A stretch of 48,677 nucleotides of DNA, taken from Mycoavidus cysteinexigens (GTDB lineage: Bacteria; Pseudomonadota; Gammaproteobacteria; Burkholderiales; Burkholderiaceae). The notes beneath the pieces are model-generated. The model was not told the DNA's origin and did not search any database. It worked only from the letters and a program-made list of their open reading frames with translations. Below, one piece after another: positions 8,347-36,124 of this stretch. Location: positions 1 through 48,677 of the forward strand of contig JASSUF010000001.1 in NCBI GenBank assembly GCA_031963365.1. The letters run 5' to 3'. Each line of letters begins with the position of its first letter. Within the stretch, counting starts at the first letter, position 1. Made by a program: the position numbers and the translations under genes.

Positions 8347-9022
8347 TCGAGATCGGCCATCGTTTTTTGCCTTGCTCAGCGATGTTTTTTCATTCTATCG
8401 CCAGGATTTATCCACCTTTACCGGAAATATTTGGTGGAATGCAATGCAGCCTTTTGATTTTCATGCGGTGCATGATGCGTTAACCCGCCATTGTGTAAAC
8501 CCCGATAACGGGCAGTTTTTGCCTAAACCTGCTGATGTCGTGCGACTGCTGCAAGGCTCCACGCAAGATAGCGCGCTGATGGCTTGGTCCAAAGTCGAAG
8601 CCGCTATACGCAAAGTAGGCACGCATGTCAGCGTGACGTTTGATGATGCCTTCATTCAACAAGTCTTGCAGGACATGGGGGGATGGATTGCATTGGGGCA
8701 AAAGAAAGAACCCGATTGGCCCTTTGTGCGCAATGAATTTGTCAATCGCTATCGCGGATATCGCCAATTGGGTCCGCTGACCACTTGGCCTGCGGTGTTG
8801 GTAGGAGAGGCTGAGGCAAGTAATCAGTGCAATGGATTTAAAAGCGATCCGCCAGTGTTGATTGGCGATGTGAAAGGGGCGCAGCAGATTCAGGCTCATG
8901 GAACCCATTCAGGCTTGTTAACGGTTACTCGCCCAGATCAAAGCAGTTTTAAGCAACTGAGCGCTCCCGTTATAGCCGCTTTGCAAGCCCATCATGCCAT
9001 TTCCGAGGAGCAGCCAGCATGA
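8339..9022 (+). CDS. Phage replication accessory protein (helicase-loader-like by position; G39P-like resemblance uncertain)
   Basis: Start at MHDRDRP with SD ggag. Positioned after the replication organiser and before packaging genes. Confidence 0.45.
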   Translation: MHDRDRPSFFALLSDVFSFYRQDLSTFTGNIWWNAMQPFDFHAVHDALTRHCVNPDNGQFLPKPADVVRLLQGSTQDSALMAWSKVEAAIRKVGTHVSVTFDDAFIQQVLQDMGGWIALGQKKEPDWPFVRNEFVNRYRGYRQLGPLTTWPAVLVGEAEASNQCNGFKSDPPVLIGDVKGAQQIQAHGTHSGLLTVTRPDQSSFKQLSAPVIAALQAHHAISEEQPA

Positions 9023-10815: not shown

Positions 10816-12716
10816 TGTCAGCCACAGAAAATTCTGCAGTCAATCTGCCGCATCCAGAATCCGAGGCCTTGGCACAACGCTGGATGCAACGGCTAGAACG
10901 CGCCAAAGATCAGTGGTCGATATGGCACAAACGCATGGCGCATAACCAGGATTTGGTGGCGGGGTTTGATGTAACACAAGATCCCGCTAGTTCAGAATTT
11001 TGTCGGTTACGGGCCAATCTGATTTTTTCGACGATAGCGGCCATATTGCCCAATATATACGCCCGTGATCCTGAAATCAGTGTCACCTCTCGCTATCCAC
11101 AGCAACGTTTATCGCTGTTTTGTCACACGTTGCAAACGGTAATTAATCGCGCGCTCCTCGATGCCAATCTCAAAGATCGCGCTAAAGACGCCGTGTCATC
11201 GGCGATGACCTGCTATTTCGGTATTGTAAAAGTGATGTATCAGCGCGAAGCACAGAGCGATCCGATGATGGCGGGGCATCTACACGATAGCGAGACGCAT
11301 AGCTCGCAGTTAACACCATTGCACCAGGATATGCATGATCCTGTAGCGGGTATCGATCAAGAAGCACAACAAGGAGAATCTGCGCAGCTTATCGCCAGTT
11401 TAAAAACACACGAGGATATAAGTCATGCAGAGGGCCTGGTTATCGATCTCGTATCGGCAGACCATTTGCTGATCGACCCCGATATCAAAGAATTTTGTAA
11501 TTTGTATCAAGCAGGCTGGATGGCGCAGCGTATTCCGATGAATCGGCAGGAAGCGCAAGCACGCTATGGCGTCGATTTACGCGGCGCGACCCCTTATAAC
11601 CAGCCCTTTGATCAAGCCACCGCTTCTCGAGATAGGCGATTGGCATCCTGCACCCCCACGCTAGATGAAGATCAACAGATATGTGTGATCGAAGTCTGGG
11701 ATCGGCGCACTGATCGCGTCTATACGCTGGTGGAAGGCTGCCCCTTCTTTGTACGTGAACCTTGGACCCCACCTCGCGTTGGGGCGCGCTGGTATCCGTT
11801 TTTTATCCTGCCGTTTTCAACGGTAGTTGGAAAACTCATTGGCCCATGCCTCGTCGATTTGACCGAAAAACTCCAAAACGAGCATAACGACACCCGCGAT
11901 AAATTTGCCGCACATCGTCATGCTAATCGTCCCCACTGGATTGTATCGACCGATACGGCGCCAGAAACCATACAACGCCATACCCAAGCCACGCTGGGCG
12001 AAATTGTATTGGTACAAAGTAATGGACTCCCTATTCAGCAAGTGATTCAACCCGGCCAAAACATACCGATCCACCCAGCAGATTATGACACCAGCCCTAT
12101 TCGCCAAGATTGGGAGCAAGTCACTGGTTTGCAAGATGCCTCGCGCTCAATGATTGCGCAAGCAAAAACAGCAACCGAAGCGGCTTTGATGGACAAAGCG
12201 CTTACAGGCCGTGTATCGGAGTTTTTAGACAAACTCAAAGGCTGGTTGCAGCAGATTGCGCAATATGTCGCACAAATGCTGTTACAGGAACTCACCCCGC
12301 AGCAGGTGCAGCGTTATATGGGGCCGCCCATTATGAGCACGCGCATTATCGAAGGTCGCTCCATAGTTGAAGAACAGCCAAGCTATGACTGGCCGGAACT
12401 CAGCAAAGCACAAGTTTTTGACATGGTGCAAGTGAGGATACGGGCAGGTACCAGCGGGGCACCCGATACGTTGGAAAAACAAAAAGCCTGGATGGAGTTG
12501 TTGCCGAAGATTGTGCCTCTTATCGAGCAATTGATGCAGCTGCGCGCCAAAGGCGAAGAAGCCGCACCATTAGAAGCGTTGTTACGCATTATCGTCAAAG
12601 TATTTGATGAGAATGAGGACGTCGATGTCGAAACGCTCATTCCAAAAATGGCCCCGCCGCCTAAGCCAGAAGGACCTGTAGAAAATGGTCTAGGTATGGG
12701 CATGTCGGCCGCATAA
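10812..12716 (+). CDS. Portal protein
   Basis: ~634 aa ORF whose ATG overlaps the terminase stop (gGATGATG). Size and position are typical of a portal. Confidence 0.7.
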   Translation: MMSATENSAVNLPHPESEALAQRWMQRLERAKDQWSIWHKRMAHNQDLVAGFDVTQDPASSEFCRLRANLIFSTIAAILPNIYARDPEISVTSRYPQQRLSLFCHTLQTVINRALLDANLKDRAKDAVSSAMTCYFGIVKVMYQREAQSDPMMAGHLHDSETHSSQLTPLHQDMHDPVAGIDQEAQQGESAQLIASLKTHEDISHAEGLVIDLVSADHLLIDPDIKEFCNLYQAGWMAQRIPMNRQEAQARYGVDLRGATPYNQPFDQATASRDRRLASCTPTLDEDQQICVIEVWDRRTDRVYTLVEGCPFFVREPWTPPRVGARWYPFFILPFSTVVGKLIGPCLVDLTEKLQNEHNDTRDKFAAHRHANRPHWIVSTDTAPETIQRHTQATLGEIVLVQSNGLPIQQVIQPGQNIPIHPADYDTSPIRQDWEQVTGLQDASRSMIAQAKTATEAALMDKALTGRVSEFLDKLKGWLQQIAQYVAQMLLQELTPQQVQRYMGPPIMSTRIIEGRSIVEEQPSYDWPELSKAQVFDMVQVRIRAGTSGAPDTLEKQKAWMELLPKIVPLIEQLMQLRAKGEEAAPLEALLRIIVKVFDENEDVDVETLIPKMAPPPKPEGPVENGLGMGMSAA

Positions 12717-12731
12717 AAGGAGTAATACACG

Positions 12732-13778
12732 ATGGAAAACGATACCGATACTGCATGGCCTTCAAGCGCAGGAGCTGCTTCCGAAGGAGAATATGACGAA
12801 GAAGCTGCAGAAGTTCCTGCATCGGCAGCAAATCCTGACACGCCAGAAGCTTCTCACTCAGACCACCCTGCACCCCGTTTGCAAGCGATGCTCGATACAT
12901 TAAGCGAAACCAAACCGGAGGAGCAATCACTAGAGGAAGCTGCAAGCGCATCAGAAGCCGAATCTACGCCAAACCCTGACGCGCCAGCAGAACCCAACGA
13001 TACGGCAGTAGATACCGAAGAAGCCGATCTCCTAAAAGGCGTGAAGTCCGAGCGCAGCAGAACACGCATTCAGAATATGTTAGCAGAGCGTCGGCAGGTA
13101 GAAGACGAGTTACAGCAGATCCGCGGTATGTTTCAAGCTACGGGAATGACGCCAGAGGAGTTAGCACAGACCTTTGAATTCGGGTCATTGGTGCGCTCGG
13201 GGGAAGCGGCAGATTTGCATACGGCGCTTCAAATGGTCGAAGCACAGCGTGCGAGCCTCTGCCAAAAACTCGGTGTAGAACTCCCAGGCGTCGATGCCCT
13301 AGCAGACTACCCCGATTTAGGGCAAGAAGTACAACAAGGCACGCTTTCCCGTGCACGGGCACTCGAAATGGCCACATTGCGTAGGCAACACCACGCCATT
13401 GAACAGCACGTTCAAACTCATACGCAAGCGCAGCAAGACCAGGTGCAATTTGAAAGAGCGGTGACGCAAGGACAGCAATCGATAGCTGCATATTTACAGC
13501 AAAACGCGCACAAAGTAGACCATGCAGCCCGTATGCAGGCAATTCAAGCGCATTTTGCACAACCGGCCAATGTGCAGGCATTTGTGCAAACGTATCAGCC
13601 CACACAGTGGGAACATGCCATTAAGTGGATGTATGAACAGATCCGTATCGCTCCTGCGTCACGCAGCATGCCAACGCCACTGCGCAGTAGCTCCGCAGCG
13701 CTGGGGCAACCTGGTATCTCTGGACAAAGCGCACCTGCAGATCGGTTAGCGCAGCGTATGGAAGCAATGGGGTTATAG
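12732..13778 (+). CDS. Scaffolding protein (putative)
   Basis: 348 aa. Acidic N-terminus and Ala/Gln/Glu-rich helical body. Located between portal and capsid genes. Confidence 0.55.
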   Translation: MENDTDTAWPSSAGAASEGEYDEEAAEVPASAANPDTPEASHSDHPAPRLQAMLDTLSETKPEEQSLEEAASASEAESTPNPDAPAEPNDTAVDTEEADLLKGVKSERSRTRIQNMLAERRQVEDELQQIRGMFQATGMTPEELAQTFEFGSLVRSGEAADLHTALQMVEAQRASLCQKLGVELPGVDALADYPDLGQEVQQGTLSRARALEMATLRRQHHAIEQHVQTHTQAQQDQVQFERAVTQGQQSIAAYLQQNAHKVDHAARMQAIQAHFAQPANVQAFVQTYQPTQWEHAIKWMYEQIRIAPASRSMPTPLRSSSAALGQPGISGQSAPADRLAQRMEAMGL

Positions 13779-13840
13779 CAAAAGGCTTTCTATTGCTTTG
13801 TAGAGATACTATTTTGAGACTTTACTTGAGGGAGTGCGTG

Positions 13841-14692
13841 ATGGTGTGCTTTCCGGTGTCTTTGTCTTTTTGCAATGGCTCTTCTTACCGTTCATTCGAT
13901 TACCCGAAGGAGCGTAAGTATCAGGAGATTTTTTCCAAACAGATTACCGCTGCTACGGGTTTTGAAAAATCTACTTCATTTACCAATCAAACGCGATGTA
14001 AGCCACCCTGCAAACGCAATATGACTAGGCAGTTGCTGGACCAATGGGGCATGGTGCAGCAAGATTTACAAGAAGATGCTTGGTTTCGCCAGTCAGGACT
14101 GGAAACCGCGCAGCAAGATTACCTGGCATGCTTACTCCAGGAATATAAACAAGCATGCGAGGATCTGCAGCCATCCGCAAAGGCCTGCTTATATGTTGAA
14201 GAACAGGATGCGATTTTAGACCGCCTCTGCCATTTAAATGCAGTCATGCAGGAAATAGAAATATTTTTTGAGGACTGTAGCCCTCGGGCCAAAGCACAGC
14301 AATCGGTCTTTTATCTGTCGGTGGCTATTATTGTAGCGGGGGTGTTTTCAGCAGTGATTATCCAAGCGGTGGGAATAGTCTGTACAGCAACGGCGCTGGT
14401 TTCTATTTTGTCGGCGTGTAGTCTAGCCTGTCTGCGGTTGGTGTATGTGCTCTATGAACGCGATATTGCCCACGCACATGCGCAGTGGGAAAGGCGTAGA
14501 AGGCAGTGGAAGACGCTGGAAAAATACTTTGCGCTATTTTGGTGGAAGGAAATAATAAGCGCGCTAGGCAAAGAACAGCTTAAAGGATCCATAAAAGCAA
14601 AACAGCGTGATACTACCATTCGTGCAGTAAGGCGCTATCCTCAAAAAATGCGTTTTACTTGGGTACGGTCTAAAAGAAGGCGGTCTGGATGA
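13841..14692 (+). CDS. Cargo membrane protein with bilobed hydrophobic domain
   Basis: SD gggag before the ATG at 13841. Hydrophobic hairpin VFYLSVAIIVAGVFSAVIIQAV-GIVCTATALVSILSACSLACLRLVYVLY. Basic C-terminus. Interrupts the scaffold-capsid junction. Confidence 0.55.
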   Translation: MVCFPVSLSFCNGSSYRSFDYPKERKYQEIFSKQITAATGFEKSTSFTNQTRCKPPCKRNMTRQLLDQWGMVQQDLQEDAWFRQSGLETAQQDYLACLLQEYKQACEDLQPSAKACLYVEEQDAILDRLCHLNAVMQEIEIFFEDCSPRAKAQQSVFYLSVAIIVAGVFSAVIIQAVGIVCTATALVSILSACSLACLRLVYVLYERDIAHAHAQWERRRRQWKTLEKYFALFWWKEIISALGKEQLKGSIKAKQRDTTIRAVRRYPQKMRFTWVRSKRRRSG

Positions 14693-14741: not shown

Positions 14742-16049
14742 TTATCCATCATCCATTTCTATATCTTGCATAACATATACAGACTCTAAATCTTTATTTC
14801 TGCGCTCCACGTCAGGAAGTGGCTGCGCGCCATTAAAACGGATATCCATAAAATTTATTTTGTGCGAGTATGGAATGGCCGCCATTAAATTATTAACGCC
14901 TACATCACCGATGTTATTATAACAAATATTTAATGAATATATTCCTTTTTCTAATATTTTCAATATGTATTGTATCCCTACATGGCTAATTCTATTGGTG
15001 TATAAATCTAATTTTTGAAAATTTTTATACAAATAGGATCCCTCCATTTTTTCTATGAGAATCATACTTAAACTTTTAACCCCTTCGTCCCCAATATCGT
15101 TTCCTCCAAAGGATAATACTTTAAGACTTATCGGTAAAATTCCTATCAATAGTTTTATATCTTCATCACGGATGCCAACGCCCTCCAATCGCAAATCAGA
15201 AATAGTTGATTGTGTAAAATTGGAAATAAAATCTTTTACCCAACCGGGTTGAATATCTCCAGAAGAACAAAAAGAAGGAGCAGAAAACATAGCGCTTCTA
15301 GTAAATTCAAAACTTGAAATCGTGTTTTTAATTTCAGGTCCAAGAGCTAACAAATTCTGCGCGATAAAATTGCTATATCTTAAAGAAAACTTCGTCTCTC
15401 TTATACTTCTACAGCTCTTAAGAAGCTGTATGATTCTATCAATAATAGAATTTTCAGCGGTATATATAAAACCTGCATCAAAATATAAACTTTCAAGATT
15501 TTGTTTGTTTTCCATCGCTTGTAGTGTTGTAAAAAATCGATGGATATCTACAGCGTGCAAAATAATATTACTATCCTCTATGTCATAATTACCCATCGAA
15601 CTAATCTTGATATGCACATGCTGTATATTTTCAATCACTTTTTCAATGTTATATTTAATTTCCTCCTCGGTTAATGTATTATTATTTCTTGTAATGGCAT
15701 CAATTTTTTCACCACTCCATTTTTCTTGGGCTTGACTCCATATAGATCGCGCGTACGTATCTGTTGTCGCAAGCAAACTACGTATCACTCCGCAGAATGG
15801 AGGGCTTATTAGCATCAATTCGATAAAATCTTTTGGAGTCGATAAAGAGTGCGATAAAAAATCGAATATTTGCAACGCTATTTCATTAGGTAGAGGAGGC
15901 AAAGCTTGGCGACTGTATTTTTCCAAAGAAAATTTTTGAGGTGCAGCCTGTGCTATTTCCTGTGATGGTTGGACTGGATTTTCAGAAGGAATATATTGAG
16001 TAGGGAAACATGGAGTGGAAACACGCGACACATTATTAGAGTTCATCAT
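14742..16049 (-). CDS. F-box + leucine-rich-repeat (RNI-type) eukaryotic-like protein, moron 1
   Basis: F-box motif LPPLPNEIALQIFDFLS...FIELMLISPPFCGVIRSLL. C-terminal LRRs LKVLSFGGNDIGDEGVKSLS, LDLYTNRISHVGIQYI, LNICYNNIGDVGVNNLMAAI. Antisense to the late operon and AT-rich. Confidence 0.8.
   Translation of the reverse strand: MMNSNNVSRVSTPCFPTQYIPSENPVQPSQEIAQAAPQKFSLEKYSRQALPPLPNEIALQIFDFLSHSLSTPKDFIELMLISPPFCGVIRSLLATTDTYARSIWSQAQEKWSGEKIDAITRNNNTLTEEEIKYNIEKVIENIQHVHIKISSMGNYDIEDSNIILHAVDIHRFFTTLQAMENKQNLESLYFDAGFIYTAENSIIDRIIQLLKSCRSIRETKFSLRYSNFIAQNLLALGPEIKNTISSFEFTRSAMFSAPSFCSSGDIQPGWVKDFISNFTQSTISDLRLEGVGIRDEDIKLLIGILPISLKVLSFGGNDIGDEGVKSLSMILIEKMEGSYLYKNFQKLDLYTNRISHVGIQYILKILEKGIYSLNICYNNIGDVGVNNLMAAIPYSHKINFMDIRFNGAQPLPDVERRNKDLESVYVMQDIEMDDG
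15762..15902 (-). other. F-box motif region of moron 1 protein (aa ~50-96)
   Basis: LPxEI..xIFxFL followed by a hydrophobic helix pair, matching the F-box consensus LPdEil..Il..L......l.lVsk.w..l. Confidence 0.7.
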
Positions 16050-16560
16050 TTATCCTATTGCATCAAGTACATGCATCTATTGCATAGATACATAACACCA
16101 ACCAAAAATCAGCCTCCTAGGTGTATGAATTTGAACATTTCTATCAGGCACTACTACCTAATACACTCAGGTCTTTTACTAGGAAATGTATTTTTAAAAA
16201 AATACCACCGTATTTAAAATACCGTGCACACTGCACTTTGTAAAAAATCTTTTACTTTGCAATCTGCAGACTGAATCGCTGGAAGCCGAGCGTCGCGTGC
16301 GGCAGCTGTGGGTTAAAAAAGTAAAGATTGCCCACCGCAATGTGTCGCTGTGATCGCCGGGGTCGCGTCCGGTAGCGCTTTTCTCATGCACTATTTATAC
16401 AAATAGTTTGCAATGGAGTTGTACCCTTGCAAGCGCTGTGAGCATTATTTTCCCGTGTGGCGTGCGGGGCCGGTGTGGAAAGTAGGCCGTTTATGACGTG
16501 CAGAATTTTTTCTCTGCGTGGCTAAAACGGTCATGGTGCTTTTTCCACTGGATACTCAGT

Positions 16561-17607
16561 ATGCCTATCTCTGCGCATGATCTACGCGAACTGACCAAAG
16601 TCTCGCTCGACGACTATTTACGCAATATCCCCATCGATCAAATCGGTGTGGAGCGCCCACTCCTGAAACGCTGTTTATCCAAGCGCAAACTCTTTTTTGG
16701 AGCACGCCAGCATATCGTCGAGAACGTGCGTAAAGACTATGGCAGTCATTTCGCCTGGGCTTATGGCGAAACCCTGGTTGAATTCAATAAACGCCATACC
16801 ACGGAGCAAGTGCAATTTCCGTGGCGACGCGCCGTAGATGGACTGTATTTAGACTATGACCGCCTCTTCGGTGCGGGTATTGACGTACGCGAAGGCAAGC
16901 ACGGCGAACATCGACTCGAGCAGAATGAGAAAGTGCAACTGCTCAATTTGCTCGATGAGCAAATGGAAAGCCTCAAACTGGGGTTTTTAGATCGCTTAGA
17001 TACCGAGCTACATCGCGATGGCACTTCTTCTGCGGATGCGGTAACCGGCCTCGATGCGCTCGTATCGGTTGATCCTTCTAACGGCATATTAGGCGGCCTC
17101 GATCGAGAAAAAATGCCATGGTGGCGCAATACCACCTATACCGGCATTGAAACTGGCCGTTCAGGCAATTTGAGTATGCATATGGAGCAAGCTTGGCGGC
17201 GCTGTATTCGTAATGGCGGCGCGCCCGATTTTATTTTGGCGGGATCCGCTTTTTTAGATGCGTATCGACAAGAAATCAGGGTGGTGCAAAACGCGGAAGC
17301 AGCGCGTCCTAAAACGCTCGATGCCGGCGTGGGGACAGCAGGCAGTACCGGTCTGTACTTCAAAGGCGTAGAAATCGTCTGGGACCCGCACTTTGAAACC
17401 CTCGATGCACTCGAAACCCCGCTGATTCCATGGGAAAAGCGCTGTTATTTCCTCAATTTCAAATATTTTAAATATCGCGATGATGATGTACATATCGTCA
17501 CCCCGACGCGCCCCCATAACACGCTCGCACTCTACGCAATGATTACGGTGCGCTGTGCGCTCACGATGTCGCGTGCCAATGCGCATGCGGTTTTGGCGAT
17601 TCAATAG
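16561..17607 (+). CDS. Major capsid protein
   Basis: 348 aa from MPISAHDLRELTK (a GTG at 16498 is possible). Position after portal and scaffold. Sequence character typical of podovirus/HK97-fold coat proteins. Confidence 0.7.
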   Translation: MPISAHDLRELTKVSLDDYLRNIPIDQIGVERPLLKRCLSKRKLFFGARQHIVENVRKDYGSHFAWAYGETLVEFNKRHTTEQVQFPWRRAVDGLYLDYDRLFGAGIDVREGKHGEHRLEQNEKVQLLNLLDEQMESLKLGFLDRLDTELHRDGTSSADAVTGLDALVSVDPSNGILGGLDREKMPWWRNTTYTGIETGRSGNLSMHMEQAWRRCIRNGGAPDFILAGSAFLDAYRQEIRVVQNAEAARPKTLDAGVGTAGSTGLYFKGVEIVWDPHFETLDALETPLIPWEKRCYFLNFKYFKYRDDDVHIVTPTRPHNTLALYAMITVRCALTMSRANAHAVLAIQ

Positions 17608-19701: not shown

Positions 19702-19981
19702 CACAGAAAGCAAATCGCTTATTGAATTGGCCCTTATAGGAGCATTGATTGCACTGGGCAAACTGCTCGCCGGAGGCGAAAAGCTCACGCTGCGCTTGTG
19801 TGCGGGGCGGGTGATTATCGGAGCCGCCTTGAGTATGGTAGCTGGAGCTGCACTCGCCATGATCCCAGATCTCTCTGTAACGGCGCTGATCGGCTTAGGT
19901 TCTGCTTTAGGCATATGTGGACAATCGGTACTTGAAGCTGGGGTACAGCGTTGGATAACCAGCTCTGATGGCAAGCACTAA
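19691..19981 (+). CDS. Three-TM small membrane protein, putative holin
   Basis: 96 aa with three hydrophobic segments (LIELALIGALIALGKLLAGG, VIIGAALSMVAGAALAMI, ALIGLGSALGICGQSVL) and a charged C-terminus. Overlaps both neighbours. Confidence 0.45.
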   Translation: MTPDTESKSLIELALIGALIALGKLLAGGEKLTLRLCAGRVIIGAALSMVAGAALAMIPDLSVTALIGLGSALGICGQSVLEAGVQRWITSSDGKH

Positions 19982-20600
19982 TCAAACGCTGGGCGCATTA
20001 CGGGCTGAGCTTTGCACCCGACTGGGATTTGTATCCCAAGGCCCTGCTGCAGAAAGCAATCGTGCTGAACTGAATTCCTTTTTGCAAGAAGCGCAGGAAT
20101 ATGTGTATGCACAGACGCAGGGCAATCAAAGTCCTTGCACAGCATCTATGGTGACTTCTCCTGGAGAACGCTTATATGACTGGCACGACCGCACCAGAGA
20201 TCAAGCAATAGACCCGCATAGAGTGCAAGAAGTGGGGGTGCAGCATGCAGGACACTATGCGCGGCTGGTACAAGGGATCAGCGCGCATCAACGTGAATCG
20301 CAAATAGCGCGCGATAGTCCCCGCTATTACGATAGCTTAAACGATCAATTATTGCTGTGGCCCACGCCGAATGCACGCTATACCATCATTATTACCTATC
20401 ACGCAGCATTGCCAAGGCTTACGCAAGATGCAGATAGGCCCGGTGTACCGGAGAAACTGCTTTTACTGTATGCCATCGCTTCGGCCAAAGCGCATTACCG
20501 GCATGCCGATGCTGCTGTAGCGGGTAAAGCATTTGATGCGTTGTTGCGCGAATATCAAAGCCGGCAACATGGACAACGGCGCTATTTTATGCGTGGATAG
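19968..20600 (+). CDS. Virion structural protein (possible head-tail adaptor)
   Basis: 210 aa in the late operon, translationally coupled. Function assigned by position only. Confidence 0.4.
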   Translation: MASTNQTLGALRAELCTRLGFVSQGPAAESNRAELNSFLQEAQEYVYAQTQGNQSPCTASMVTSPGERLYDWHDRTRDQAIDPHRVQEVGVQHAGHYARLVQGISAHQRESQIARDSPRYYDSLNDQLLLWPTPNARYTIIITYHAALPRLTQDADRPGVPEKLLLLYAIASAKAHYRHADAAVAGKAFDALLREYQSRQHGQRRYFMRG

Positions 20601-20605: not shown

Positions 20606-21991
20606 ATGCAGACCATCACGTTTGATCGCTTTGATTTGGGGATTGATTGGCGTAAAGGCGAATCGGTATCGGATGCCAATCGGCTGCGTGAAATGTGCAA
20701 TGCCTATGTAACCACCGGCCTAGCAGCGCAAAAGCGCCCTGGGTTGGTCAAAGTGGCCACTTTAGAGCCAGGAACCAGCGGCCTTTTTGCAGCAGGTGGA
20801 CAACTGCATACGTTTTATGGGGAAGGACATATAACCCATGCAGATACACGCTTTGTAGCGCACAAGGTCACGCACCCCAAAGGAGAGCAGGCACTCAAAA
20901 GTGTGCCTTTTGTCGATACCTTTCACGGCCTGATTTATACCGCCATTGAATACGAAGACGGTAGTACCGTGCATCACTACCTCGATCATAGTGAAAAAAG
21001 TGCCATAGAAGATGAGCAATGCCCGCATTCACCCTGTGTAATCAAAGCAGCCAGCAAACTCTTTGCCACCAACAATGATGTGGTGCGCTATTGCGCCACC
21101 GGTAACCCGCGCAATTGGACTTTGGAGAACAATGCGGGGTTTTTACCGACGGGGCTGAATTTCCATGGCGATCGGATGGCGAAGGCTTTGGGGATGTATA
21201 GCAATAATCTGGTCGTGCTCTCGCATGAAGAAGCACAGATTTGGCAAGCCGATCCTGATCCTAGTGCGATGCGCTTATTGGACATTGTAAAAAATGTCGG
21301 CACACATTTCCCATTCACCGTGGCTACCGTATCGGGGGATTTGTACTTTTTATCGAGTGCGGGATTCCGTTCGATTACGACTTTGCAATATACCAACAGC
21401 TTAGCCGATGTGGATATTGGCAGTCCGATTGATCCATTGGTAAAAAAAAGCTTACAAAATCTGCAAATCGAACCGCTTGCACGCTATTACGCAGGGACGG
21501 GGCAGTATCTGTGCATGCTGGGCAAAGAGGTCTTTGTCTATTCGGTATCGAGAACCGCACGCATTGCAGCGTGGTCCCGCTATACCTTGCCGTTTGAAGT
21601 ATCAGCACTCGCTGAAATGGAAGGCACGCTGTATCTGCGTCAGGGAGACACCATTTGGCAATTCTCTGATGAAGCGCATGCGGATAATGGCACACCCTTT
21701 GAAGTGAAGATAGAAACGCCGTGGCTGGATCTCAAAGCTCCTGGGCAACTCAAACGCTTATTAGGCGCCGAAATCATCGCGCAAGGCACCTGTGCATTCT
21801 CCGTAGCCTTTGATGAGCAGCATCCCAACGCAGTGACGCCCGTACTGCGTGTGCGCGGAAACACACGTAGCACCGGGCGTTTACCACTGAGCTGTACTGG
21901 GCGCGCCTTTGCATTGAGATTTACCCACAAGGATAACCAACCCTTTAGGCTCGATGCGGTCACCTTATTTTATGAACCGCTAGGAATATAA
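20606..21991 (+). CDS. Virion structural protein (possible tail tubular/stabilisation protein)
   Basis: 461 aa in the late operon. Function assigned by position only. Confidence 0.4.
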   Translation: MQTITFDRFDLGIDWRKGESVSDANRLREMCNAYVTTGLAAQKRPGLVKVATLEPGTSGLFAAGGQLHTFYGEGHITHADTRFVAHKVTHPKGEQALKSVPFVDTFHGLIYTAIEYEDGSTVHHYLDHSEKSAIEDEQCPHSPCVIKAASKLFATNNDVVRYCATGNPRNWTLENNAGFLPTGLNFHGDRMAKALGMYSNNLVVLSHEEAQIWQADPDPSAMRLLDIVKNVGTHFPFTVATVSGDLYFLSSAGFRSITTLQYTNSLADVDIGSPIDPLVKKSLQNLQIEPLARYYAGTGQYLCMLGKEVFVYSVSRTARIAAWSRYTLPFEVSALAEMEGTLYLRQGDTIWQFSDEAHADNGTPFEVKIETPWLDLKAPGQLKRLLGAEIIAQGTCAFSVAFDEQHPNAVTPVLRVRGNTRSTGRLPLSCTGRAFALRFTHKDNQPFRLDAVTLFYEPLGI

Positions 21992-22005
21992 AAGAGTACT
22001 TCTGA

Positions 22006-23169
22006 TTAGTCCCACAAAAACTCAATGTCTGCGCCATGCTTATTTTTTATACCAGAAAATTTATGGCGTTCATTGTCTAAATGGCAGCCAGATAAACGCA
22101 CTGTCTCTAATGTTAAAAAATTTGATATAGCTCTTAAATCATCAGCTTTATAGCCAGACAAATGATTACCGGTTAAGTCTAGATATTGAACATCTATGTT
22201 CTGCAACTTTTTAAAAATATTTTTTGCGCCATTACGGTCAATATTATTACAGCTTAATGATATGGTTTTTAGCTTTTCTGGCAGATTTTCAATTAGATGT
22301 AATGCCTCTCCATTTGCAAGACCAGCAAAATCTGCTGAGAACTCTTTAATATTGATATTTTTTAAATACTTTGAAAATGCATTTAACGCGGGTCTTTTAT
22401 TTTTATCTAAGCCTAAACTAAAAGAATCAATATTTTTACCTGATAATAATTGCAACAAAGTTGGAATATATTTTATGTCAAACTCATCACTGTCCACACA
22501 GAAGAATGGAATACTGCTCAATTCTGAATTTTTATGTAACACCCATAAAAAGTTGGATGTGAATTTATATTTATCATAATTGCATTCGCTAGACAAAGGC
22601 AAGTCCAATGTTTTTATATTGGTTTTTTTTAGCAAAGCATGAAATACCATATCCATTAGTTTATTACACTGATTCACAGTGGATGAGAAAAAAACAAAAT
22701 CGAAGCAAATATGCTGTACTTTATTAATAATAAAGTCAATGCCAAAATTGGTTTGATTATATGAGAATTCGGTTTTTTGTGTAATTCTAGAAGTCGCTCT
22801 TTCACACCAATCCATTTGATACTCAGGGCTTTGCGAGTCTATATCCGCGCTATCAACCAATAACTTTTCGAATTCAGAAAAAAATATCCTATGCTTAACT
22901 TTTATTGCCTCAAAAAATAATTCTTTATTAACCAACATAAGCACAGATAATTGCTGCATAGACTCTTTTGGTGAATATAATTTTGGAATGACATTTAAAA
23001 TCATGCTTACTAATTCTGTTGGCAAATCAGAAAAGGTAGCAGAAGGAGAAACCCTATTCTGGGAAGCGCTATCGTTTTCCAAGCATAGATCTTTAGAATG
23101 TATTTCATTGCCCTTGGAGTATGTAATATAAGAACGTTCTTGCAATTTATTTACATCTGATACATTCAC
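22006..23169 (-). CDS. F-box + LRR eukaryotic-like protein, moron 2
   Basis: GTG start with SD gaggaaat. F-box FSDLPTELVSMILNVIP...LSVLMLVNKELFFEAIK. C-terminal LRRs LKTISLSCNNIDRNGAKNIFKKL, YLDLTGNHLSG, LETVRLSGCHL. Antisense to the late operon and very AT-rich. Confidence 0.78.
   Translation of the reverse strand: MNVSDVNKLQERSYITYSKGNEIHSKDLCLENDSASQNRVSPSATFSDLPTELVSMILNVIPKLYSPKESMQQLSVLMLVNKELFFEAIKVKHRIFFSEFEKLLVDSADIDSQSPEYQMDWCERATSRITQKTEFSYNQTNFGIDFIINKVQHICFDFVFFSSTVNQCNKLMDMVFHALLKKTNIKTLDLPLSSECNYDKYKFTSNFLWVLHKNSELSSIPFFCVDSDEFDIKYIPTLLQLLSGKNIDSFSLGLDKNKRPALNAFSKYLKNINIKEFSADFAGLANGEALHLIENLPEKLKTISLSCNNIDRNGAKNIFKKLQNIDVQYLDLTGNHLSGYKADDLRAISNFLTLETVRLSGCHLDNERHKFSGIKNKHGADIEFLWD
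22894..23034 (-). other. F-box motif region of moron 2 protein (aa ~46-92)
   Basis: LPtELv.mIL followed by L.vLmLVnKelf..i, matching the F-box consensus. Confidence 0.65.
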
Positions 23170-23312
23170 GATTTCCTCACTTTTTACGAGCCAAAAATTA
23201 AATTTTTGAATTTATTCTTAATAAGCAGTAAATGCAAACTGCATACTGATTAAAAAACATTTATTTTTTCATTTTTGCCTATCTACATCAGGCCAAAAGA
23301 TAGGAGCTGCAC

Positions 23313-23729
23313 ATGCAAATCAACTTCTTAGTCGATCCATCTGAATTAGAGGCATACTTTGCCCGCTTGGCACCGCTGTTTGAGCGTGTTGTGGGTAAAG
23401 CTACGCAGGGTGAGTTTGATGTTGAAGATTTATATTGCTTGGCGCGGCAAGGCCATATCACCCTAGGGATGATAGAGAATGAAGGGCAGGTGCAATTGGC
23501 AATCGCTTTTGAGTTTATGGTGTATCCACGATTTATGGCGGTCAATATTTTGGCGCTAGCCGGGCAAGGGTTAGCAGAAGCGTTCAATAAATTTTGGCAT
23601 GATTTCAAAGCCTGGTGCCGAGAAGCTGGCGCACAAAAGATTCAGGCTTCGTGTCACCCTTCAATGACAAGACTGCTTAGGCGGTACGGGTTTCTAAATG
23701 TTTATCAAACGATGCACTACAACCTATGA
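23313..23729 (+). CDS. Phage protein, possibly GNAT-fold
   Basis: 138 aa with SD aggag. The beta-alpha pattern around AVNILALAGQGLAEAFNKFWHDFKAWCREAGAQKI is reminiscent of acetyltransferase folds. Weak call. Confidence 0.35.
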   Translation: MQINFLVDPSELEAYFARLAPLFERVVGKATQGEFDVEDLYCLARQGHITLGMIENEGQVQLAIAFEFMVYPRFMAVNILALAGQGLAEAFNKFWHDFKAWCREAGAQKIQASCHPSMTRLLRRYGFLNVYQTMHYNL

Positions 23730-23740
23730 AGGAGCGCCAC

Positions 23741-24466
23741 ATGTCAAAAATAACTTCTCTTGAACAGTTAGCTACCCAGGCGGCACTGGAATATGGCGGT
23801 CCGCATCTTTTAGCTTGGCCGATGCAACGCGGCGCACGCCTTATGCCACATAAAGGCGGCGGCGCAGGTGCTGCCTATGAAATGGAAGCCGAGCGACAAC
23901 GGCGCGTTAAAGAAGCGGTCTCTAAAATAAATGAAGTATTTGGAGGCACAGATCATGCAGGTCGCCAAGCGCTGTACGATGAACAAAAAAAAGCAATTAC
24001 CGATCTCAATACCCAAGACGTAAATCGTCAGTTTGATCAAGTCTCCCGCACCAATCGATTTGGGTTAGCGCGTGCAGGCTTGATGGGCGGATCGGCAGAT
24101 ATAGATAGCCAATCCGAACTTGCCCGTCGCAACAATGAAGGTTTAGAGCGTTCAGCAGGATTAGGCGAAGGCGCAGCGGCAGATTTACGCAATGCGGATG
24201 AGCGTACGCGCCAGAATTTAACCTCGATGGCGCAAACTGGCATGGATACTGGGCAAGCAGCTCAACTGGCTTTATCCGGGCTAGAAACCAATGCCAAGAA
24301 TGCGGCTGCACAGCGCGCTGGGTCAACGATAGGCGATCTGTTTAGCAATCTCGCCTGGGCGTATATGGCGCTGCAATCTAACGGGTTGCATGGAGCACAA
24401 GGGCAATATGGCTCCTCTCCATGGTATGCGCCTACTTCACCGCGATCGCGGTATGCCGGGCGTTAG
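23741..24466 (+). CDS. Internal virion/ejection protein (putative)
   Basis: SD aaggag before the ATG at 23741. Gly/Ala/Gln-rich. Part of a run of four such genes before lysis. Confidence 0.4.
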   Translation: MSKITSLEQLATQAALEYGGPHLLAWPMQRGARLMPHKGGGAGAAYEMEAERQRRVKEAVSKINEVFGGTDHAGRQALYDEQKKAITDLNTQDVNRQFDQVSRTNRFGLARAGLMGGSADIDSQSELARRNNEGLERSAGLGEGAAADLRNADERTRQNLTSMAQTGMDTGQAAQLALSGLETNAKNAAAQRAGSTIGDLFSNLAWAYMALQSNGLHGAQGQYGSSPWYAPTSPRSRYAGR

Positions 24467-29223: not shown

Positions 29224-30432
29224 TTAGGCCAGAGCATGTACATTTGCAGCTACGTAAGAGGACTCACTTGAATCCGTATAGCCGGATGCAGACATGTCAC
29301 TATCCCCTTCTGTAGACGAAGAGCCATGCTCGTCCAATGTGGGCATTACAAGAGCATTTTCCACAGGAGGCTGGGGAAGAGGAAGAGAAAGCGATTGTGA
29401 AGGGTCAAAATCTTGGTGTAGCGGCAACGTTGGATTCATCGGCACCCTATCTATAGAGTTCGTTAGAGAAGTGGACTGAGTACCTGCCTGAAGGAGTGCG
29501 GTATCGCTGCCATTTTCCTGATGACGGTTACTTTGACTGGTAACCTGGCTACTGCTATGACCTTGCTCAAGAGCATGTAATCGTTCAGAGAATGCATTAA
29601 GTTGAGCAAGCAAATTTTGGTTTATTAACTGCTGCTGTTGATTTGTTTGCCTTAATTCTGCAATTATTTCTCCACTTTGCTTGACTTCTATTCTTAATTG
29701 CGCATTAAGGCTCTTCAATTGTTTAACTTCATTTTCTAATTGTTTATTTTGATTTCTTAATTTTGTATTTGCATTTGTATTTCTTAATCGCGTATTTTTG
29801 TTTTGTAATATTCCGTGAGGCTCTTCTGAAGTTTTGATGCGATTATTTAATTTCGCTACTAACATCTCACTTCCAGCAGCAGTATTGGATGCGGTTTCAC
29901 TGACTACGGTTTGGGTTACGCTTCCCACCCCTGTTTGCGGTACTTCAAAAGGTGCAAGTGCAGTTTCTTCGATTTCAAGGCGGTATGGCATTTCGCTGCT
30001 TGGAACAGATAGAGTACTGTTGTTTTGATTTGCTGGTTCTATATCAGCATTTCCTTCGCCAATACTCACTGTTGGGGCAATAATAGCGCTAGCTGCTGTC
30101 GTATTGGATTCAGTAACATGGGCCGCAATGGCACCAATAGGAGGCGAGGTTTCTGGTCTTTGACGAGGTAAGGGTGCAGTTTGTTTGGCTTCAAATTTTT
30201 CTGACGCCATCGGGTTTGAGGTGAATGTTTTTTTACTATTCTGGTCTTCTATTGGGAGTTGTGCTATATAGGCAACGCTGGATCCACCAAGAAGGGTCGC
30301 GGCAACAGCAGCGCCGCCCGCTATCGTAGTGCTTGATCCAGAACCCGCAGCTGTGATAGCGGCGGCGGCCGAGGCGCTTCCCATTTGTGATAACACAGCA
30401 AATGCACCAATTCCAGCAAGAGGTAATGGCAT
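29224..30432 (-). CDS. Cargo protein: N-terminal Ala/Gly-rich double hydrophobic segment + Gln/Asn-rich coiled coil + Ser/Asp/Glu-rich tail
   Basis: SD ggag. LAGIGAFAVLSQMGSASAAAAITAAG and IAGGAAVAATLLGGSSVAYIA. Heptad region LRNQNKQLENEVKQLKSLNAQLRIEVKQ...LLAQLNAFSERLHALEQ. Confidence 0.6.
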   Translation of the reverse strand: MPLPLAGIGAFAVLSQMGSASAAAAITAAGSGSSTTIAGGAAVAATLLGGSSVAYIAQLPIEDQNSKKTFTSNPMASEKFEAKQTAPLPRQRPETSPPIGAIAAHVTESNTTAASAIIAPTVSIGEGNADIEPANQNNSTLSVPSSEMPYRLEIEETALAPFEVPQTGVGSVTQTVVSETASNTAAGSEMLVAKLNNRIKTSEEPHGILQNKNTRLRNTNANTKLRNQNKQLENEVKQLKSLNAQLRIEVKQSGEIIAELRQTNQQQQLINQNLLAQLNAFSERLHALEQGHSSSQVTSQSNRHQENGSDTALLQAGTQSTSLTNSIDRVPMNPTLPLHQDFDPSQSLSLPLPQPPVENALVMPTLDEHGSSSTEGDSDMSASGYTDSSESSYVAANVHALA

Positions 30433-30820
30433 AGATCACTCCAGTGAGTACGTGTTTATGAAATACTTTTCAGCTTTGCGTCGCTTTTAAGTTTTACAGA
30501 AAACCTCATTGGCTAGAACTACATCTGCATATGCTGCTTGGAATAGCATGTACCTAATAAAATAATGGCCAAGACAAAAAATATTAATACAGTGATCTAG
30601 CAGGGATAGGTTTAATCAATCTCTACTGCTTATCAGCGCAATGACGGATACCCAATAGAAGAAAAAATATCCAAAGTATTCAGATAAAGGTATTGCTCCT
30701 ACATCTACCTCGTTTGCAGGCGATAAAAGCGACTCCTGCGCAATACCATAAAGTTAAAAAACGATAAGCAGTATCCGGCCAAGACCTGTTAATAACCAGC
30801 TGGCTTTGTGGACCCAAACT

Positions 30821-32467
30821 ATGGACCGTATCACGCCTATTCCTTCTCCAACACTTCCTGCAACCGCAGCTAAACCCATCGCCTGCGAAGATGCCCTATG
30901 GGTTCCGCTCCCTGAGCAAGATGTAATAGAGCGCAATAGCCTTATTGCTATCGAAGCATGGCAAAAGCTATTTACTGATTTGCCGCTTGAAATAGTGTCA
31001 ATAATTTTTACAGAAACATTATTTGGTCTAACGCTCAATGAAATATTGAATATTGCAGAATATCAAAGAGGGAAACTCAAACCTGAGGCTTGGTCCGCAC
31101 TCTATAAAGCTAGTATTTTTTGTTTTGGCTCAATAGAAGAGCTATCAGAGTGGCTCTCTAATCCTAAACAGTTTCGGAATTTTGTCGAAGATGCGCAAAA
31201 ATACGGAGATAAAACCCTGCGGCAAATCTTTTATGGATTACAACTGCTGGAAAAAACAAAAGACTCGATAACCATTGAAGATTGTATGCGTGCTGGAATG
31301 ATAGATAGAGAGCGTATCTGTTCAGAAAATGCATTACCAAGTATTAGGGGCGAGCAAGATTTTTTATCGTGGCTCTGTGGAAAAAAAGCGCGTATAGTAA
31401 TTTGTTTACGTTGGCTTCCTGCGCAAACCCACAATCCTGAAGCTCGTAATCCTGATTTACTAGAAGAAGCAGTAAAACAAGGTAATTGCACGATAGTAAA
31501 GCAAGTATGCGCCTATATGAAAAAGCATAGGCTGCATGATGGGGCTGTCCTTCACCCATGTCGAAATGCATTATGGAGAGCGGTTATTGATAATGATGTC
31601 CCAATAGCACAATATTTATTCGACGAATTTCCAGATTTTCGGTTCACTCAAGGTCTTCTACAAATTTCTGCAGCAGAAGGATGTTTGCCTATGGTTCAAC
31701 TGCTTATAGAAAGAAAAATAGAAATTAATGAACTAGATGACTATCAAAAAACGGCCTTGCAGACAGTAATAGGTACCTTCTATCCATATCAGCTTTCTCC
31801 TTCATATTGGTTAGGATTTGATGAGGAGGGGCGTCAAAAAACCCTCGATCAATTAGATGTGATTATTTTTTTACTGCGTCAATATGTTGATAAAGGACTT
31901 GATTTTGATATTAACTGGGAATTGCAAGAACAAAATACTTTTTTGCATATGGCTTGTTATGTGCAAAACCCTGACTCTGCAGAATGGTTAGCACAGTTTA
32001 TATTGGAACAGCAAAAGGATAAAAACCTGTTCGATACTCAAAATGAAGATGGGAAAACGCCTTTCATGTGTGCATTAGAGGCTGATAATTACCCTATGTA
32101 TACTTTTTTGCAAGAACAGCAGGCGAAGCGAGTGTTAGGAACCGAGAGATTTCCCCTTCTTTCTCGAGAAGAGTTTCAAGCTTTACGAACAGCGTCGAAT
32201 AGAACATCCTCAACGCCACCTTCCACAAAGCCCGTCTTGCCTGCTTCCACTAGTATTCAAAACGACCCTCCTGTTGCTGTTCAGCCTCGCATTACAGCTT
32301 CCTATGCACCTTCTGCGCAAGAGATCTCTTGGCTACACACATGGGTGCAAGCCTTTGTTGATTTATCAAAATATCTGCTCACGATGGTGTTCTTTATTCC
32401 CCGTACTTTGTATGTCTTCTACCTCAATGTCATACAAGCTTGGATAAGTAGAGTGAGTGAAAGGTAA
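30821..32467 (+). CDS. F-box + ankyrin-repeat protein with C-terminal hydrophobic anchor
   Basis: F-box LFTDLPLEIVSIIFTE. ANK-like units (LLEEAVKQGNCTIVKQVC, ALWRAVIDNDVPIAQYL, LLQISAAEGCLPMVQLLIERKIEINELDDYQKTAL, NEDGKTPFMCALEADNYPMYTFL). C-terminal YLLTMVFFIPRTLYVFYLNVIQAWI. Confidence 0.75.
   Translation: MDRITPIPSPTLPATAAKPIACEDALWVPLPEQDVIERNSLIAIEAWQKLFTDLPLEIVSIIFTETLFGLTLNEILNIAEYQRGKLKPEAWSALYKASIFCFGSIEELSEWLSNPKQFRNFVEDAQKYGDKTLRQIFYGLQLLEKTKDSITIEDCMRAGMIDRERICSENALPSIRGEQDFLSWLCGKKARIVICLRWLPAQTHNPEARNPDLLEEAVKQGNCTIVKQVCAYMKKHRLHDGAVLHPCRNALWRAVIDNDVPIAQYLFDEFPDFRFTQGLLQISAAEGCLPMVQLLIERKIEINELDDYQKTALQTVIGTFYPYQLSPSYWLGFDEEGRQKTLDQLDVIIFLLRQYVDKGLDFDINWELQEQNTFLHMACYVQNPDSAEWLAQFILEQQKDKNLFDTQNEDGKTPFMCALEADNYPMYTFLQEQQAKRVLGTERFPLLSREEFQALRTASNRTSSTPPSTKPVLPASTSIQNDPPVAVQPRITASYAPSAQEISWLHTWVQAFVDLSKYLLTMVFFIPRTLYVFYLNVIQAWISRVSER
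30968..31105 (+). other. F-box motif region of the ANK protein (aa ~50-95)
   Basis: LPlEIvsiIF then LtLnEILniae. Weaker second half than in the two LRR proteins. Confidence 0.55.
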
Positions 32468-32544
32468 ACTCAACCATTGCGCAATATAGAAAGTGCAGCT
32501 AACCCAAAGAGAATAATGTTTTTATCTTTATAAATAAATATTTA

Positions 32545-32584
32545 CGAAAAAATAGCCCTTCTTCAAAAAAGAGCTATTTTTAGA
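32545..32584. terminator. Putative bidirectional terminator between convergent cargo genes
   Basis: aatagc (32551-32556) pairs with gctatt (32573-32578), plus inner tctt/aaga. A-run upstream and T-run downstream. Confidence 0.4.
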
Positions 32585-32631
32585 GGACATTAATTTACTT
32601 TTAGATTTATTGTACGGGAGAGAGAGGGGGA

Positions 32632-34074: not shown

Positions 34075-34221
34075 ACGTTCTCCTAATAAAGCACCTCCTC
34101 GGAGATACTATGATTAAGCATATGGAAGATTTTTTTCAGCAGGTATACGGCTAATACCTGGAAGATAAGATTTGGCAAAACGCTGAATACGCTTTAGTTT
34201 GGTAACAAAATACGATGCAAA

Positions 34222-34261
34222 AAGTCCCACATCCTCAAAAAAACTGAAAACATGGGACTTT
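34222..34261 (-). terminator. Possible terminator after the 321-aa cargo gene
   Basis: On the minus strand agtccca pairs with tgggact (long loop), followed by ttttg. Confidence 0.35.
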
Positions 34262-34286
34262 GGCGATCTAAAAAAAGCCATGTTAA

Positions 34287-36012: not shown

Positions 36013-36074
36013 AATTATACTCACTGAAGAATGAGCCCTTTATTTATATGAATTTCGTCTTTAAATGTGTATCT

Positions 36075-36090
36075 TCTTCCGGGTACCAAA
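36075..36090. repeat. attR core (tRNA-Leu 3' fragment)
   Basis: Exact copy of 2185-2200. Confidence 0.85.
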
Positions 36091-36124
36091 CAAAAATTGC
36101 TTCGAACATGCTTAAAATTCTATG

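Follow-up and report, generated by a model that had tools for sequence, protein, structure and literature searches.

We analysed a stretch of 48,677 nucleotides from Mycoavidus cysteinexigens (NCBI GenBank assembly GCA_031963365.1, contig JASSUF010000001.1, positions 1 to 48,677 of the forward strand; hereafter the window), which contains a P22-like prophage integrated at tRNA-Leu in a Mycoavidus-like chromosome, that of an endofungal member of the Burkholderiaceae. The late operon of this prophage is interrupted by an antisense cargo gene, moron 2, whose predicted product of 387 amino acids (aa) joins an F-box-like N-terminal module to leucine-rich repeats (LRRs). A first-pass annotation of the same DNA had placed two F-box-LRR genes at separate junctions of the late operon, and both positions were confirmed, the second gene being moron 1. 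The open reading frame (ORF) of moron 2 was delimited from the ORF list and the sequence: it occupies 22006-23169 on the minus strand, with a GTG start at 23169-23167 and a stop at 22008-22006. A Shine-Dalgarno element (GAGGAAAT, 23178-23171) leaves 5 nucleotides between the end of GAGG and the GTG. The first in-frame ATG after this start encodes residue 56, within a conserved motif, so that the GTG start is sensible. The minus-strand frame of 387 aa, its GTG and its Shine-Dalgarno element are all present as first described, the peptides quoted at that time (FSDLPTELVSMILNVIP...LSVLMLVNKELFFEAIK, LSLSCNNIDRNGAKNIFKKL and LDLTGNHLSG) are all found in the protein, and the count of 16 G+C in the 60 nucleotides of line 22381-22440 is exact.

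Moron 2 sits in a genuine insertion and is a true moron. Its left flank encodes a 461-aa protein homologous to the 'packaged DNA stabilization protein', a P22 gp10-like head-completion protein (20606-21991, plus strand; tblastn with annotated phage genes, E 2e-40), which has homologues of 64% identity on IMG/VR contigs and is preceded by an SU10-type adaptor gene (19968-20600). On the right lies a conserved 138-aa phage gene (23313-23729, plus strand); one distant phage has it annotated as 'putative acyltransferase'. By scanning IMG/VR for the 461-aa protein and for the head protein, we obtained 82 related phage loci. Thirteen IMG/VR loci show both flanking genes, and in 12 of them the gap between the two is 3-12 bp, compared to 1321 bp in the window; in two distant GenBank phages, the 138-aa homologue also follows directly after the 'stabilization protein'. 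The insertion therefore spans exactly 21992-23312, the very limits drawn in the first-pass annotation, and its left edge is a 14-bp spacer (21992-22005) between the convergent stops of the gp10-like gene and moron 2. Relatives of moron 1 or moron 2 are encoded in none of the 82 loci (E<=1e-5). The earlier proposal that the phage had acquired the gene is thus supported by its deviant G+C content, by the closed junction of 12 of 13 relatives and by the lack of homologues in these loci; the gene order of the late operon broadly agrees with its placement between genes for tail structure and for internal virion proteins. We considered whether the 138-aa gene, which is lacking in loci L007 and L008, was itself part of the insertion, and rejected this because it adjoins the gp10-like gene in the 12 IMG/VR relatives and the two distant phages. 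The thirteenth locus, L056, carries a different antisense insertion of 684 bp at the identical junction, with a 227-aa ORF (13983-14666, minus strand). The junction thus tolerates other cargo, which suggests that it is a hot spot for cargo insertion. The 227-aa ORF of L056 is Cys-rich and possibly nuclease-like.

The composition of moron 2 differs strongly from its surroundings. The gene has 31.4% G+C and a third-position G+C content (GC3) of 0.286, compared to 50.4% and 0.513 for its upstream late-gene neighbour; taken together, the flanking late genes are at 50.4% and 46-53% G+C with GC3 of 0.44-0.51, and G+C changes abruptly at ~21950 and ~23300. The AT-rich upstream region noted earlier, here 143 bp at 29.4% G+C (23170-23312), separates divergent genes and is the presumed promoter region according to its sequence and composition. 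Reading by eye, we noticed in it a perfect 5-bp inverted repeat (ATGCAgttTGCAT, 23232-23244), a possible operator. Such an extreme contrast, together with a GTG start and the lack of a predicted promoter or terminator, would be in keeping with a decaying or spurious ORF, or with a chimeric assembly that took in AT-rich DNA from a fungus or another source. This explanation is effectively excluded: the gene adjoins matching phage genes in independent assemblies, its Shine-Dalgarno element is correctly spaced, the predicted fold is confident, and four genomes or more preserve an intact ORF, its ratio of non-synonymous to synonymous substitutions (dN/dS) being below 1. Intact homologues were found in three Mycoavidus metagenome-assembled genomes (MAGs) at 66%, 47% and 33% identity. 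Moron 2 is a real gene and, because pairwise dN/dS values range from 0.44 to 0.58 with dS up to >1, is maintained yet fast-evolving.

The protein structure was predicted with AlphaFold2 (AF2) using an 11-sequence family alignment, with a mean predicted local distance difference test score (pLDDT) of 81.4 and a predicted template modelling score of 0.74. This model superseded an earlier one from 3 sequences, in which aa 50-100 formed one long helix with pLDDT ~60. The following segments are all encoded on the minus strand. Residues 1-45 (23035-23169), rich in S, N and Q and without a hydrophobic signal peptide, are predicted to be disordered (pLDDT <50 in both models) and could act as a secretion signal. 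An F-box-like three-helix module follows at aa 46-103 (22861-23034; helices 51-64, 67-78 and 82-103, AF2 pLDDT ~85), then a helical linker at aa 104-136 (22762-22860; AF2 helix 115-130), in which the alignments reveal a family-conserved Q-x-x-W-C motif. The remainder, aa 137-387 (22009-22761), is made of nine ribonuclease-inhibitor (RI)-type LRRs according to AF2, Pfam, profile matches in PDB and Foldseek. In the AF2 model, their β-strands lie at residues 153, 187, 219, 246, 273, 302, 329, 356 and 383, spaced by 26-34 residues, and the protein ends with a conserved C-terminal cap, F-x-G-I-K-N-K-H-G-x-x-I-E-F.

The LRRs announced by the first-pass annotation are present, with profile matches beyond chance. 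In moron 2, Pfam LRR_1 scored 22.6 bits (cut-off 20.6) and LRR_6 20.1 bits, under its cut-off of 23.4; LRR_6 reached 27.0-27.2 bits in moron 1 and P0149. Searched against PDB, the family profile matched the LRRs of NLRP1, RI and LRRC34 (E 1e-4 to 8e-4, aa 238-370). The best Foldseek match was LRRC34 (6e-8), followed by NLRP3, NLRP9, NOD2, RanGAP and RI. Over the PDB profile and Foldseek searches, FBXL2-SKP1 and Skp2 were matched as well, with E values of 1e-4 to 5e-5. Among predicted viral structures (BFVD), every match was to an LRR or F-box-domain protein of a giant eukaryotic virus, and phages gave none. In PHROGs and NCBIfam, moron 2 had no match and moron 1 no meaningful one. Since the best PDB profile and Foldseek matches are NLRP, RI and LRRC34 proteins, the repeats are of the type found in RI and in nucleotide-binding LRR receptors (NLRs), and not of the cysteine-containing (CC) type of FBXL or GALA proteins. 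Two details of the earlier description had to be revised: the LRRs are not restricted to the C-terminus, as the nine repeats cover about two-thirds of the protein, and they are of RI/NLR type, unlike the CC-type repeats of classical FBXL proteins.

Moron 1 (14742-16049, minus strand; 435 aa, 34% G+C) has a matching architecture, as seen by hhalign and a Pfam LRR_6 score of 27 bits, and from sequence comparison the two genes are distant paralogues. A profile of four moron 2 relatives matched moron 1 in hhalign at 96.5% probability (E 9.5e-10, aa 117-343 against 106-359), over a region that takes in the non-LRR linker with its Q-x-x-W and Q-H motifs. With tblastn, moron 1 and a moron 2 relative were 25% identical over 249 aa; BLASTP between moron 1 and moron 2 aligned the LRRs alone (E 0.008). 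The common layout and the diverged paralogy inferred earlier were thus borne out, since the pairwise and profile comparisons revealed homology reaching beyond the LRRs as well as LRR profile matches. Around moron 1 (13793-14692 and 16050-16497), the homologue of 12732-13778 is separated from the head gene by 2720 bp, compared to a median of 676 bp in relatives. None of the 82 related loci has a homologue of the 299-aa ORF upstream of moron 1 (13793-14692, plus strand), which may therefore belong to the moron 1 insertion.

Whether the N-terminal module is an F-box was assessed by profile comparisons. The F-box motif of the first-pass annotation is present as a string: the module holds LPTELVSMILNVI then LSVLMLVNKELFFEA, with an insertion of ~8 residues between them, and LPTELVSMILNVI...LSVLMLVNKELFFEA follows the F-box pattern L-P-x-E-[LI]-x-x-x-I-[LF] for helix 1, then L-x-x-L-x-x-V-x-K-x-[WF] for helices 2-3. 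As a comparator, we built a profile of 13 classical F-boxes, each of which Pfam recognised (best E 1.7e-19 for F-box and 6.4e-13 for F-box-like). A profile of five family N-termini aligned with it in hhalign over 18 columns of helix 1 (E 1.3e-4, probability 54%). The score of 24.2 was reached by none of 300 column shuffles (8.9 ± 2.0, maximum 16.4), so the likeness of helix 1 is beyond chance. With 12 sequences, the match extended over 36 columns and helices 1-3, across the 8-residue insertion (E 8.6e-5, probability 60%), placing LM-x-VN-x-x-F-Y opposite V-C-K-x-W-x-x-L; in this alignment the three predicted helices would coincide with the three F-box helices. Sub-threshold Pfam matches were obtained for the N-terminal fragment of moron 1 (F-box-like, E 0.0014, profile positions 4-28) and for the relatives P0002 (E 0.31, positions 1-32) and P0028 (E 0.055, positions 21-40 of 43, the second half). 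The F-box scores of the relatives, 11.3, 13.9 and 18.8 bits, lie below the cut-offs of 20.5 and 24.3 (PF00646 / PF12937), and all three matches are to F-box models, in differing halves of the domain, with no other family recurring. The module has the highest amino-acid identity among orthologues, and region-wise dN/dS did not single it out. These results suggest that the N-terminus is probably, though by no means surely, a divergent 'split' F-box-like module.

The same N-terminal motif occurs in another cargo gene of the element, which lies between the lysis cassette and the right attachment site and encodes a low-GC ankyrin-repeat protein (30806-32467, plus strand; Pfam Ank_2 4.6e-14). Its N-terminus carries F-x-D-L-P-x-E-I-V-x-x-I-F at aa 59 (FTDLPLEIVSIIF). 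A strict form of the motif, [LIFWM]P.[EDK][LIVM][LIVAF]..[ILVF][LIFV], was found in 3 of the 40 ORFs of the window, namely moron 1 (aa 53), moron 2 (aa 49) and the ankyrin protein (aa 59), all of them low-GC proteins with repeats. In a larger set, made up of the 95 ORFs of 150 aa or more from the window and five Mycoavidus loci, it was limited to the family and the ankyrin protein. The N-termini of the ankyrin protein and of the family aligned in hhalign over 15 columns (E 2.3e-4). Taken alone, the ankyrin N-terminus gave no match to the F-box profile (E 0.057) and no Pfam F-box match. From its sequence, the ankyrin protein would have an AnkB-like 'F-box-like + Ank' layout.

On this basis, we propose that moron 2 is predicted to be a phage-vectored, secreted effector that mimics a component of Skp1-Cullin-F-box (SCF) ubiquitin ligases, a proposal to which we give an even chance. 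Several results weigh against it. By the Pfam criterion, the moron 2 protein is not an F-box member and an F-box is not demonstrated: it gave no Pfam F-box or F-box-like match even at E<=10, which leaves the earlier identification partly supported, and 0 of 12 family N-termini reached a Pfam gathering score. A hidden Markov model (HMM) of five family N-termini retrieved no F-box chain from PDB, its matches being at chance level (poxvirus topoisomerase, DUF433, TLR6). The hhalign probability is 54-60%, and the usual tryptophan of F-box helix 3 is replaced by Leu/Phe (KELF). With the better structural model, the top Foldseek matches were non-F-box LRR proteins, FBXL2-SKP1 and Skp2 coming at ranks 31 and 36 (E 4-5e-5); with the weaker first model they had ranked 4 and 5, and all these matches are whole-chain ones, without alignment ranges for the three-helix module. 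A consensus scan of 23170-23312 found no sigma-70 site, and no terminator was found. Finally, the motif conserved at the N-terminus might serve export or chaperone binding instead. Because the F-box identity is sub-threshold, we infer rather than observe a role as substrate receptor, and likewise the selection for several receptors suggested earlier.

The competing view is that of a secreted LRR effector without F-box activity, in which aa 46-103 would form a lineage-specific domain for export, chaperone binding or localisation, common to Mycoavidus effectors, and no ubiquitin ligase would be recruited; the RI-type LRRs would then act by stoichiometrically binding or sequestering a fungal protein, as RI does, or would mimic the LRRs of an NLR. 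We regard this as a possible but distinctly less probable explanation. It accounts well for the lack of an F-box profile match at threshold, and for a 15-residue motif found at a fixed position (aa 49-59) in LRR and ankyrin proteins alike, as in a translocation module; moreover, NLRP, NOD2, LRRC34 and RI surpass FBXL proteins as structural matches, and RI-type LRRs are unusual partners of an F-box. However, the F-box profile match spans both halves of the domain in order and lies far above the shuffle null, and the sub-threshold Pfam matches of three relatives are all to F-boxes. An N-terminal F-box followed by LRRs or ankyrin repeats is also a canonical layout, shared by AnkB and GALA (PMC2244805). 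A further argument against this alternative comes from P0114, whose F-box is more canonical (Pfam E 0.004) and is combined with six LRR_6 repeats and a family-like C-terminal cap: its tail F-E-N-L-R-N-R-H-G-R-L-I-S-V-I-F-W resembles F-S-G-I-K-N-K-H-G-A-D-I-E-F-L-W of the family. P0114 (L010 6001-7137) is a 378-aa protein with a hydrophobic N-terminus from an unrelated bacterium (GCA_965186715.1).

The distribution of the family was determined in protein and nucleotide collections. A word-indexed search of 5.8 billion proteins retrieved two moron 2 relatives only, at 66% and 47% identity, and a genome scan assigned these and the third relative (33%) to three Mycoavidus cysteinexigens MAGs. These MAGs bear the label 'BRE' and represent Burkholderia-related endosymbionts of Mortierellaceae. 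On the strength of these homologues, and of the ~140-bp repeats that the window shares with their contigs, the host is assigned to the Mycoavidus lineage. Searching 1.84 billion representatives exhaustively with HMMER brought in ~8 further members, full-length or partial, all from NCBI assemblies with contigs of up to 2.4-3.0 Mb. Its remaining matches were mostly giant eukaryotic NLR/RI-type LRR proteins, and the nearest LRR matches outside the family are eukaryotic. The members checked have 27-31% G+C within genomes of 40-45%. No family relative was detected in IMG/VR, JGI metagenome contigs or the GenBank phage collection; the word-indexed search with moron 1 returned itself alone, and a search with the 11-sequence profile gave four previously known proteins and nothing further. 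Apart from the prophage copies, the family is chromosomal and confined to Mycoavidus genomes, which amends the initial description.

Two of the chromosomal copies are bordered by remnants of the phage genes that flank moron 2. In BRE-AD058, window positions 21954-23213 align at 80% nucleotide identity and positions 23612-23817 align directly beyond at 69%, the intervening ~400 bp being deleted; the remnant covers the C-terminal 38 residues encoded by the 138-aa gene, together with the beginning of the following 246-aa gene. In BRE-AD086, the paralogue P0009 is preceded, in an equally divergent orientation, by fragments of these same genes (aa 1-45 of the 138-aa gene at 62% and aa 113-156 of the 246-aa gene at 75%). 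The remnants, of 23313-23729 and 23726-24466, lie at L001 9737-9956 and L009 7629-7883 in two Mycoavidus MAGs, and the genes around both are chromosomal (SLAC1, NACHT/WD40, CutA, YgjP, LolB). Phage-gene fragments adjoining chromosomal copies point to delivery by a phage that decayed while its cargo was retained; the simplest reading is that such phages delivered the cargo gene repeatedly or long ago, then decayed, and that the gene was kept. Genes of 461 and 137 aa near the P0003 homologue had seemed, by their length, to be phage neighbours as well, and were discarded when tblastn showed no similarity. BRE-AD086 also encodes a 428-aa member (L006 6184-7470) and, ~5 kb away, a degraded copy (11462-12019) without any ORF of at least 120 aa; both are followed by a near-duplicate gene of ~240-255 aa, which looks like a tandem duplication.

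This distribution also bears on a role directed at the phage or the bacterium, such as superinfection exclusion, anti-defence or the binding of a bacterial or phage component, the moron then being carried because it benefits the lysogen. Late-operon morons often protect the lysogen, as is generally known, and the different antisense insertion in L056 could mean that the junction is simply permissive. However, a homologue is found in 0 of the 82 related phage loci, the phage and IMG/VR collections gave no match, the BFVD matches are all to giant eukaryotic viruses, and the nearest LRR matches outside the family are eukaryotic. The gene moreover persists in Mycoavidus chromosomes past the decay of the phage and co-occurs with eukaryote-like ankyrin, WD40 and NACHT genes. 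We therefore consider such a role improbable.

The element that carries these genes had first been viewed as a free phage. Its integrase, the tRNA-Leu gene, the attachment-site repeat and the housekeeping flanks identify it as a prophage in a bacterial chromosome. The left end is formed by tRNA-Leu(CAG) (2114-2198, plus strand), whose 3' end contains the core of the left attachment site, attL (2182-2203), followed by a tyrosine integrase gene (2362-3684, plus strand). A direct repeat matching this 3' end at 20 of 22 positions (36072-36093, plus strand) is the candidate right attachment site, attR, and the two repeats enclose ~33.9 kb. The window begins, outside the element, with a thiamine-pyrophosphate enzyme gene and ends with pcnB, ilvA, radA, alr, a major facilitator superfamily transporter gene and thiD. 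The podovirus-type late operon starts with the genes of the terminase, the portal (10794-12716) and the major head protein (16498-17607), continues with tail fibre and tail-fibre assembly genes, the SU10-type adaptor and the gp10-like gene, and ends with ejection/internal-virion proteins, endolysin and spanin; neither its DNA nor the moron 2 protein had a match in the GenBank phage collection. Besides the prophage proper, the element includes a low-GC cargo region of ~6 kb (29224-35252), bounded by the lysis cassette and attR. In addition to the ankyrin gene, this region holds three low-GC ORFs (29224-30432, 32632-34074 and 34287-35252, all on the minus strand) that fall into no assigned family and are rich in coiled-coil, low-complexity and hydrophobic segments; one of them showed a weak NCBIfam match to the type IV secretion effector family BAB2_0123 (E 0.0047). 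A ~140-bp repeat, resembling miniature inverted-repeat transposable elements or repetitive extragenic palindromes and matching in both orientations, is common to the window (5069-5207, 39627-39791, 41433-41490) and Mycoavidus MAG contigs at 72-97% identity. In L001 it occurs at 5-143, 1085-1303, 8309-8425 and 11376-11519, one copy lying just downstream of the moron homologue.

The proposed SCF mimicry would proceed as follows. The lysogen would express moron 2 from its own AT-rich upstream region, and the protein would be exported into the fungal cytoplasm, most likely by a type III or type IV secretion system; Mycoavidus genomes have been reported to contain genes of type II, III and IV secretion systems (PMC5877345). 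There, the LRR surface would capture a fungal protein while the F-box-like module docks on fungal Skp1, so that the host SCF ligase would modify or degrade the captured target in a ubiquitin-dependent manner. Ralstonia GALA/RipG (PMC2244805) is proposed, and Legionella AnkB understood, to act along these lines. The phage would spread this Mycoavidus-specific family and, after integration, would decay and leave its cargo behind. In its general form, which is more tentative than the proposal for moron 2 itself and falls short of an even chance, P22-like phages of Mycoavidus would vector lineage-specific 'split F-box' SCF-mimic effectors, with such heads joined to RI-type LRRs or ankyrin repeats, whose genes lie within the virion-structural operon and are kept after phage decay.

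Four known systems offer points of comparison. We know of no GALA gene carried as a phage moron. Like the type III effectors GALA/RipG of Ralstonia solanacearum, the moron 2 protein comes from the Burkholderiaceae and places an F-box-type module at the N-terminus, ahead of an LRR horseshoe; both have several diverged paralogues per genome and a proposed lateral origin, and both are proposed adaptors to host SCF ligases (for GALA, PMC2244805). Type III secretion of moron 2 would be in line with its disordered N-terminus and with the type III genes reported for Mycoavidus (PMC5877345). However, the GALA proteins are defined by CC-type LRRs of 24 residues with a GAxALA signature (PMC2244805), whereas the moron 2 repeats are of RI/NLR type with a period of 26-34 residues and GAxALA is absent from the moron 2 sequence. 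GALA F-boxes are recognisable by profile while the moron 2 module stays below threshold, their host is a plant and not a fungus, and none of our searches revealed sequence homology to GALA. The Dot/Icm substrates AnkB/LegU1/LicA of Legionella pneumophila likewise associate a eukaryote-like F-box with a repeat domain in an intracellular bacterium, and AnkB, with its F-box + Ank layout, is paralleled by the ankyrin protein at 30806-32467. The Legionella effectors differ in their canonical F-boxes, in not being prophage-borne and in their secretion system and host, and show no detectable sequence homology to moron 2.

Phage WO, a temperate phage of the obligately intracellular Wolbachia, carries a eukaryotic association module with eukaryote-like genes for repeat proteins or effectors (PMC5062602). 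The present element resembles it in bringing together two LRR proteins and one ankyrin protein within attachment sites in an intracellular symbiont, the region 29224-35252 from the lysis cassette to attR having a comparable role. It departs from WO in its lineage, an unrelated P22/SU10-type podovirus, in the location of morons 1 and 2 within the structural operon and not in a terminal module, and in its F-box-like/RI-LRR domain content and fungal host, the WO symbiosis being with arthropods. An N-terminal helical module with an LRR solenoid is also the arrangement of the FBXL proteins of eukaryotes (Skp2, FBXL2, TIR1) and of F-box/LRR proteins from giant viruses, and the Foldseek matches included FBXL2-SKP1, Skp2, TIR1 and FBXL3 as well as F-box-domain proteins of Sylvanvirus and Pithovirus. 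Compared to these, TM-scores are only 0.3-0.45, the LRRs are RI-like versus CC-type, and the moron 2 F-box-like module has the 8-residue insertion and lacks the helix-3 tryptophan. Bacterial F-box/LRR mimics and eukaryote-like prophage cargo, as in phage WO, are thus already known. New are a Mycoavidus-restricted family that combines RI-type LRRs with a split F-box-like head, its carriage by the P22-like prophage of a bacterium living in fungi, inside the structural operon, and the phage stumps that adjoin its chromosomal copies.

In the library searched, no paper named both Mycoavidus and F-box. Effectors of endofungal bacteria are almost unknown, the characterised example given in a review being the transcription activator-like (TAL-like) effectors of Mycetohabitans (PMC12306442). 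The present loci document the domestication of a moron, a cargo gene that survives beside the recognisable stumps of its former phage flanks. If the proposed SCF mimicry is true, the proteins would represent the first candidates for effectors acting on the ubiquitin system in an endosymbiosis of bacteria and fungi and, with their carrier, a fungal-symbiosis counterpart of the eukaryotic association module of phage WO, and prophages would move such effectors between Mycoavidus lineages. They would also constitute a small, testable family of ~10 members, with a conserved 15-residue motif and a predicted LRR binding surface, making the fungal ubiquitin system a directly testable target of the endosymbiont.

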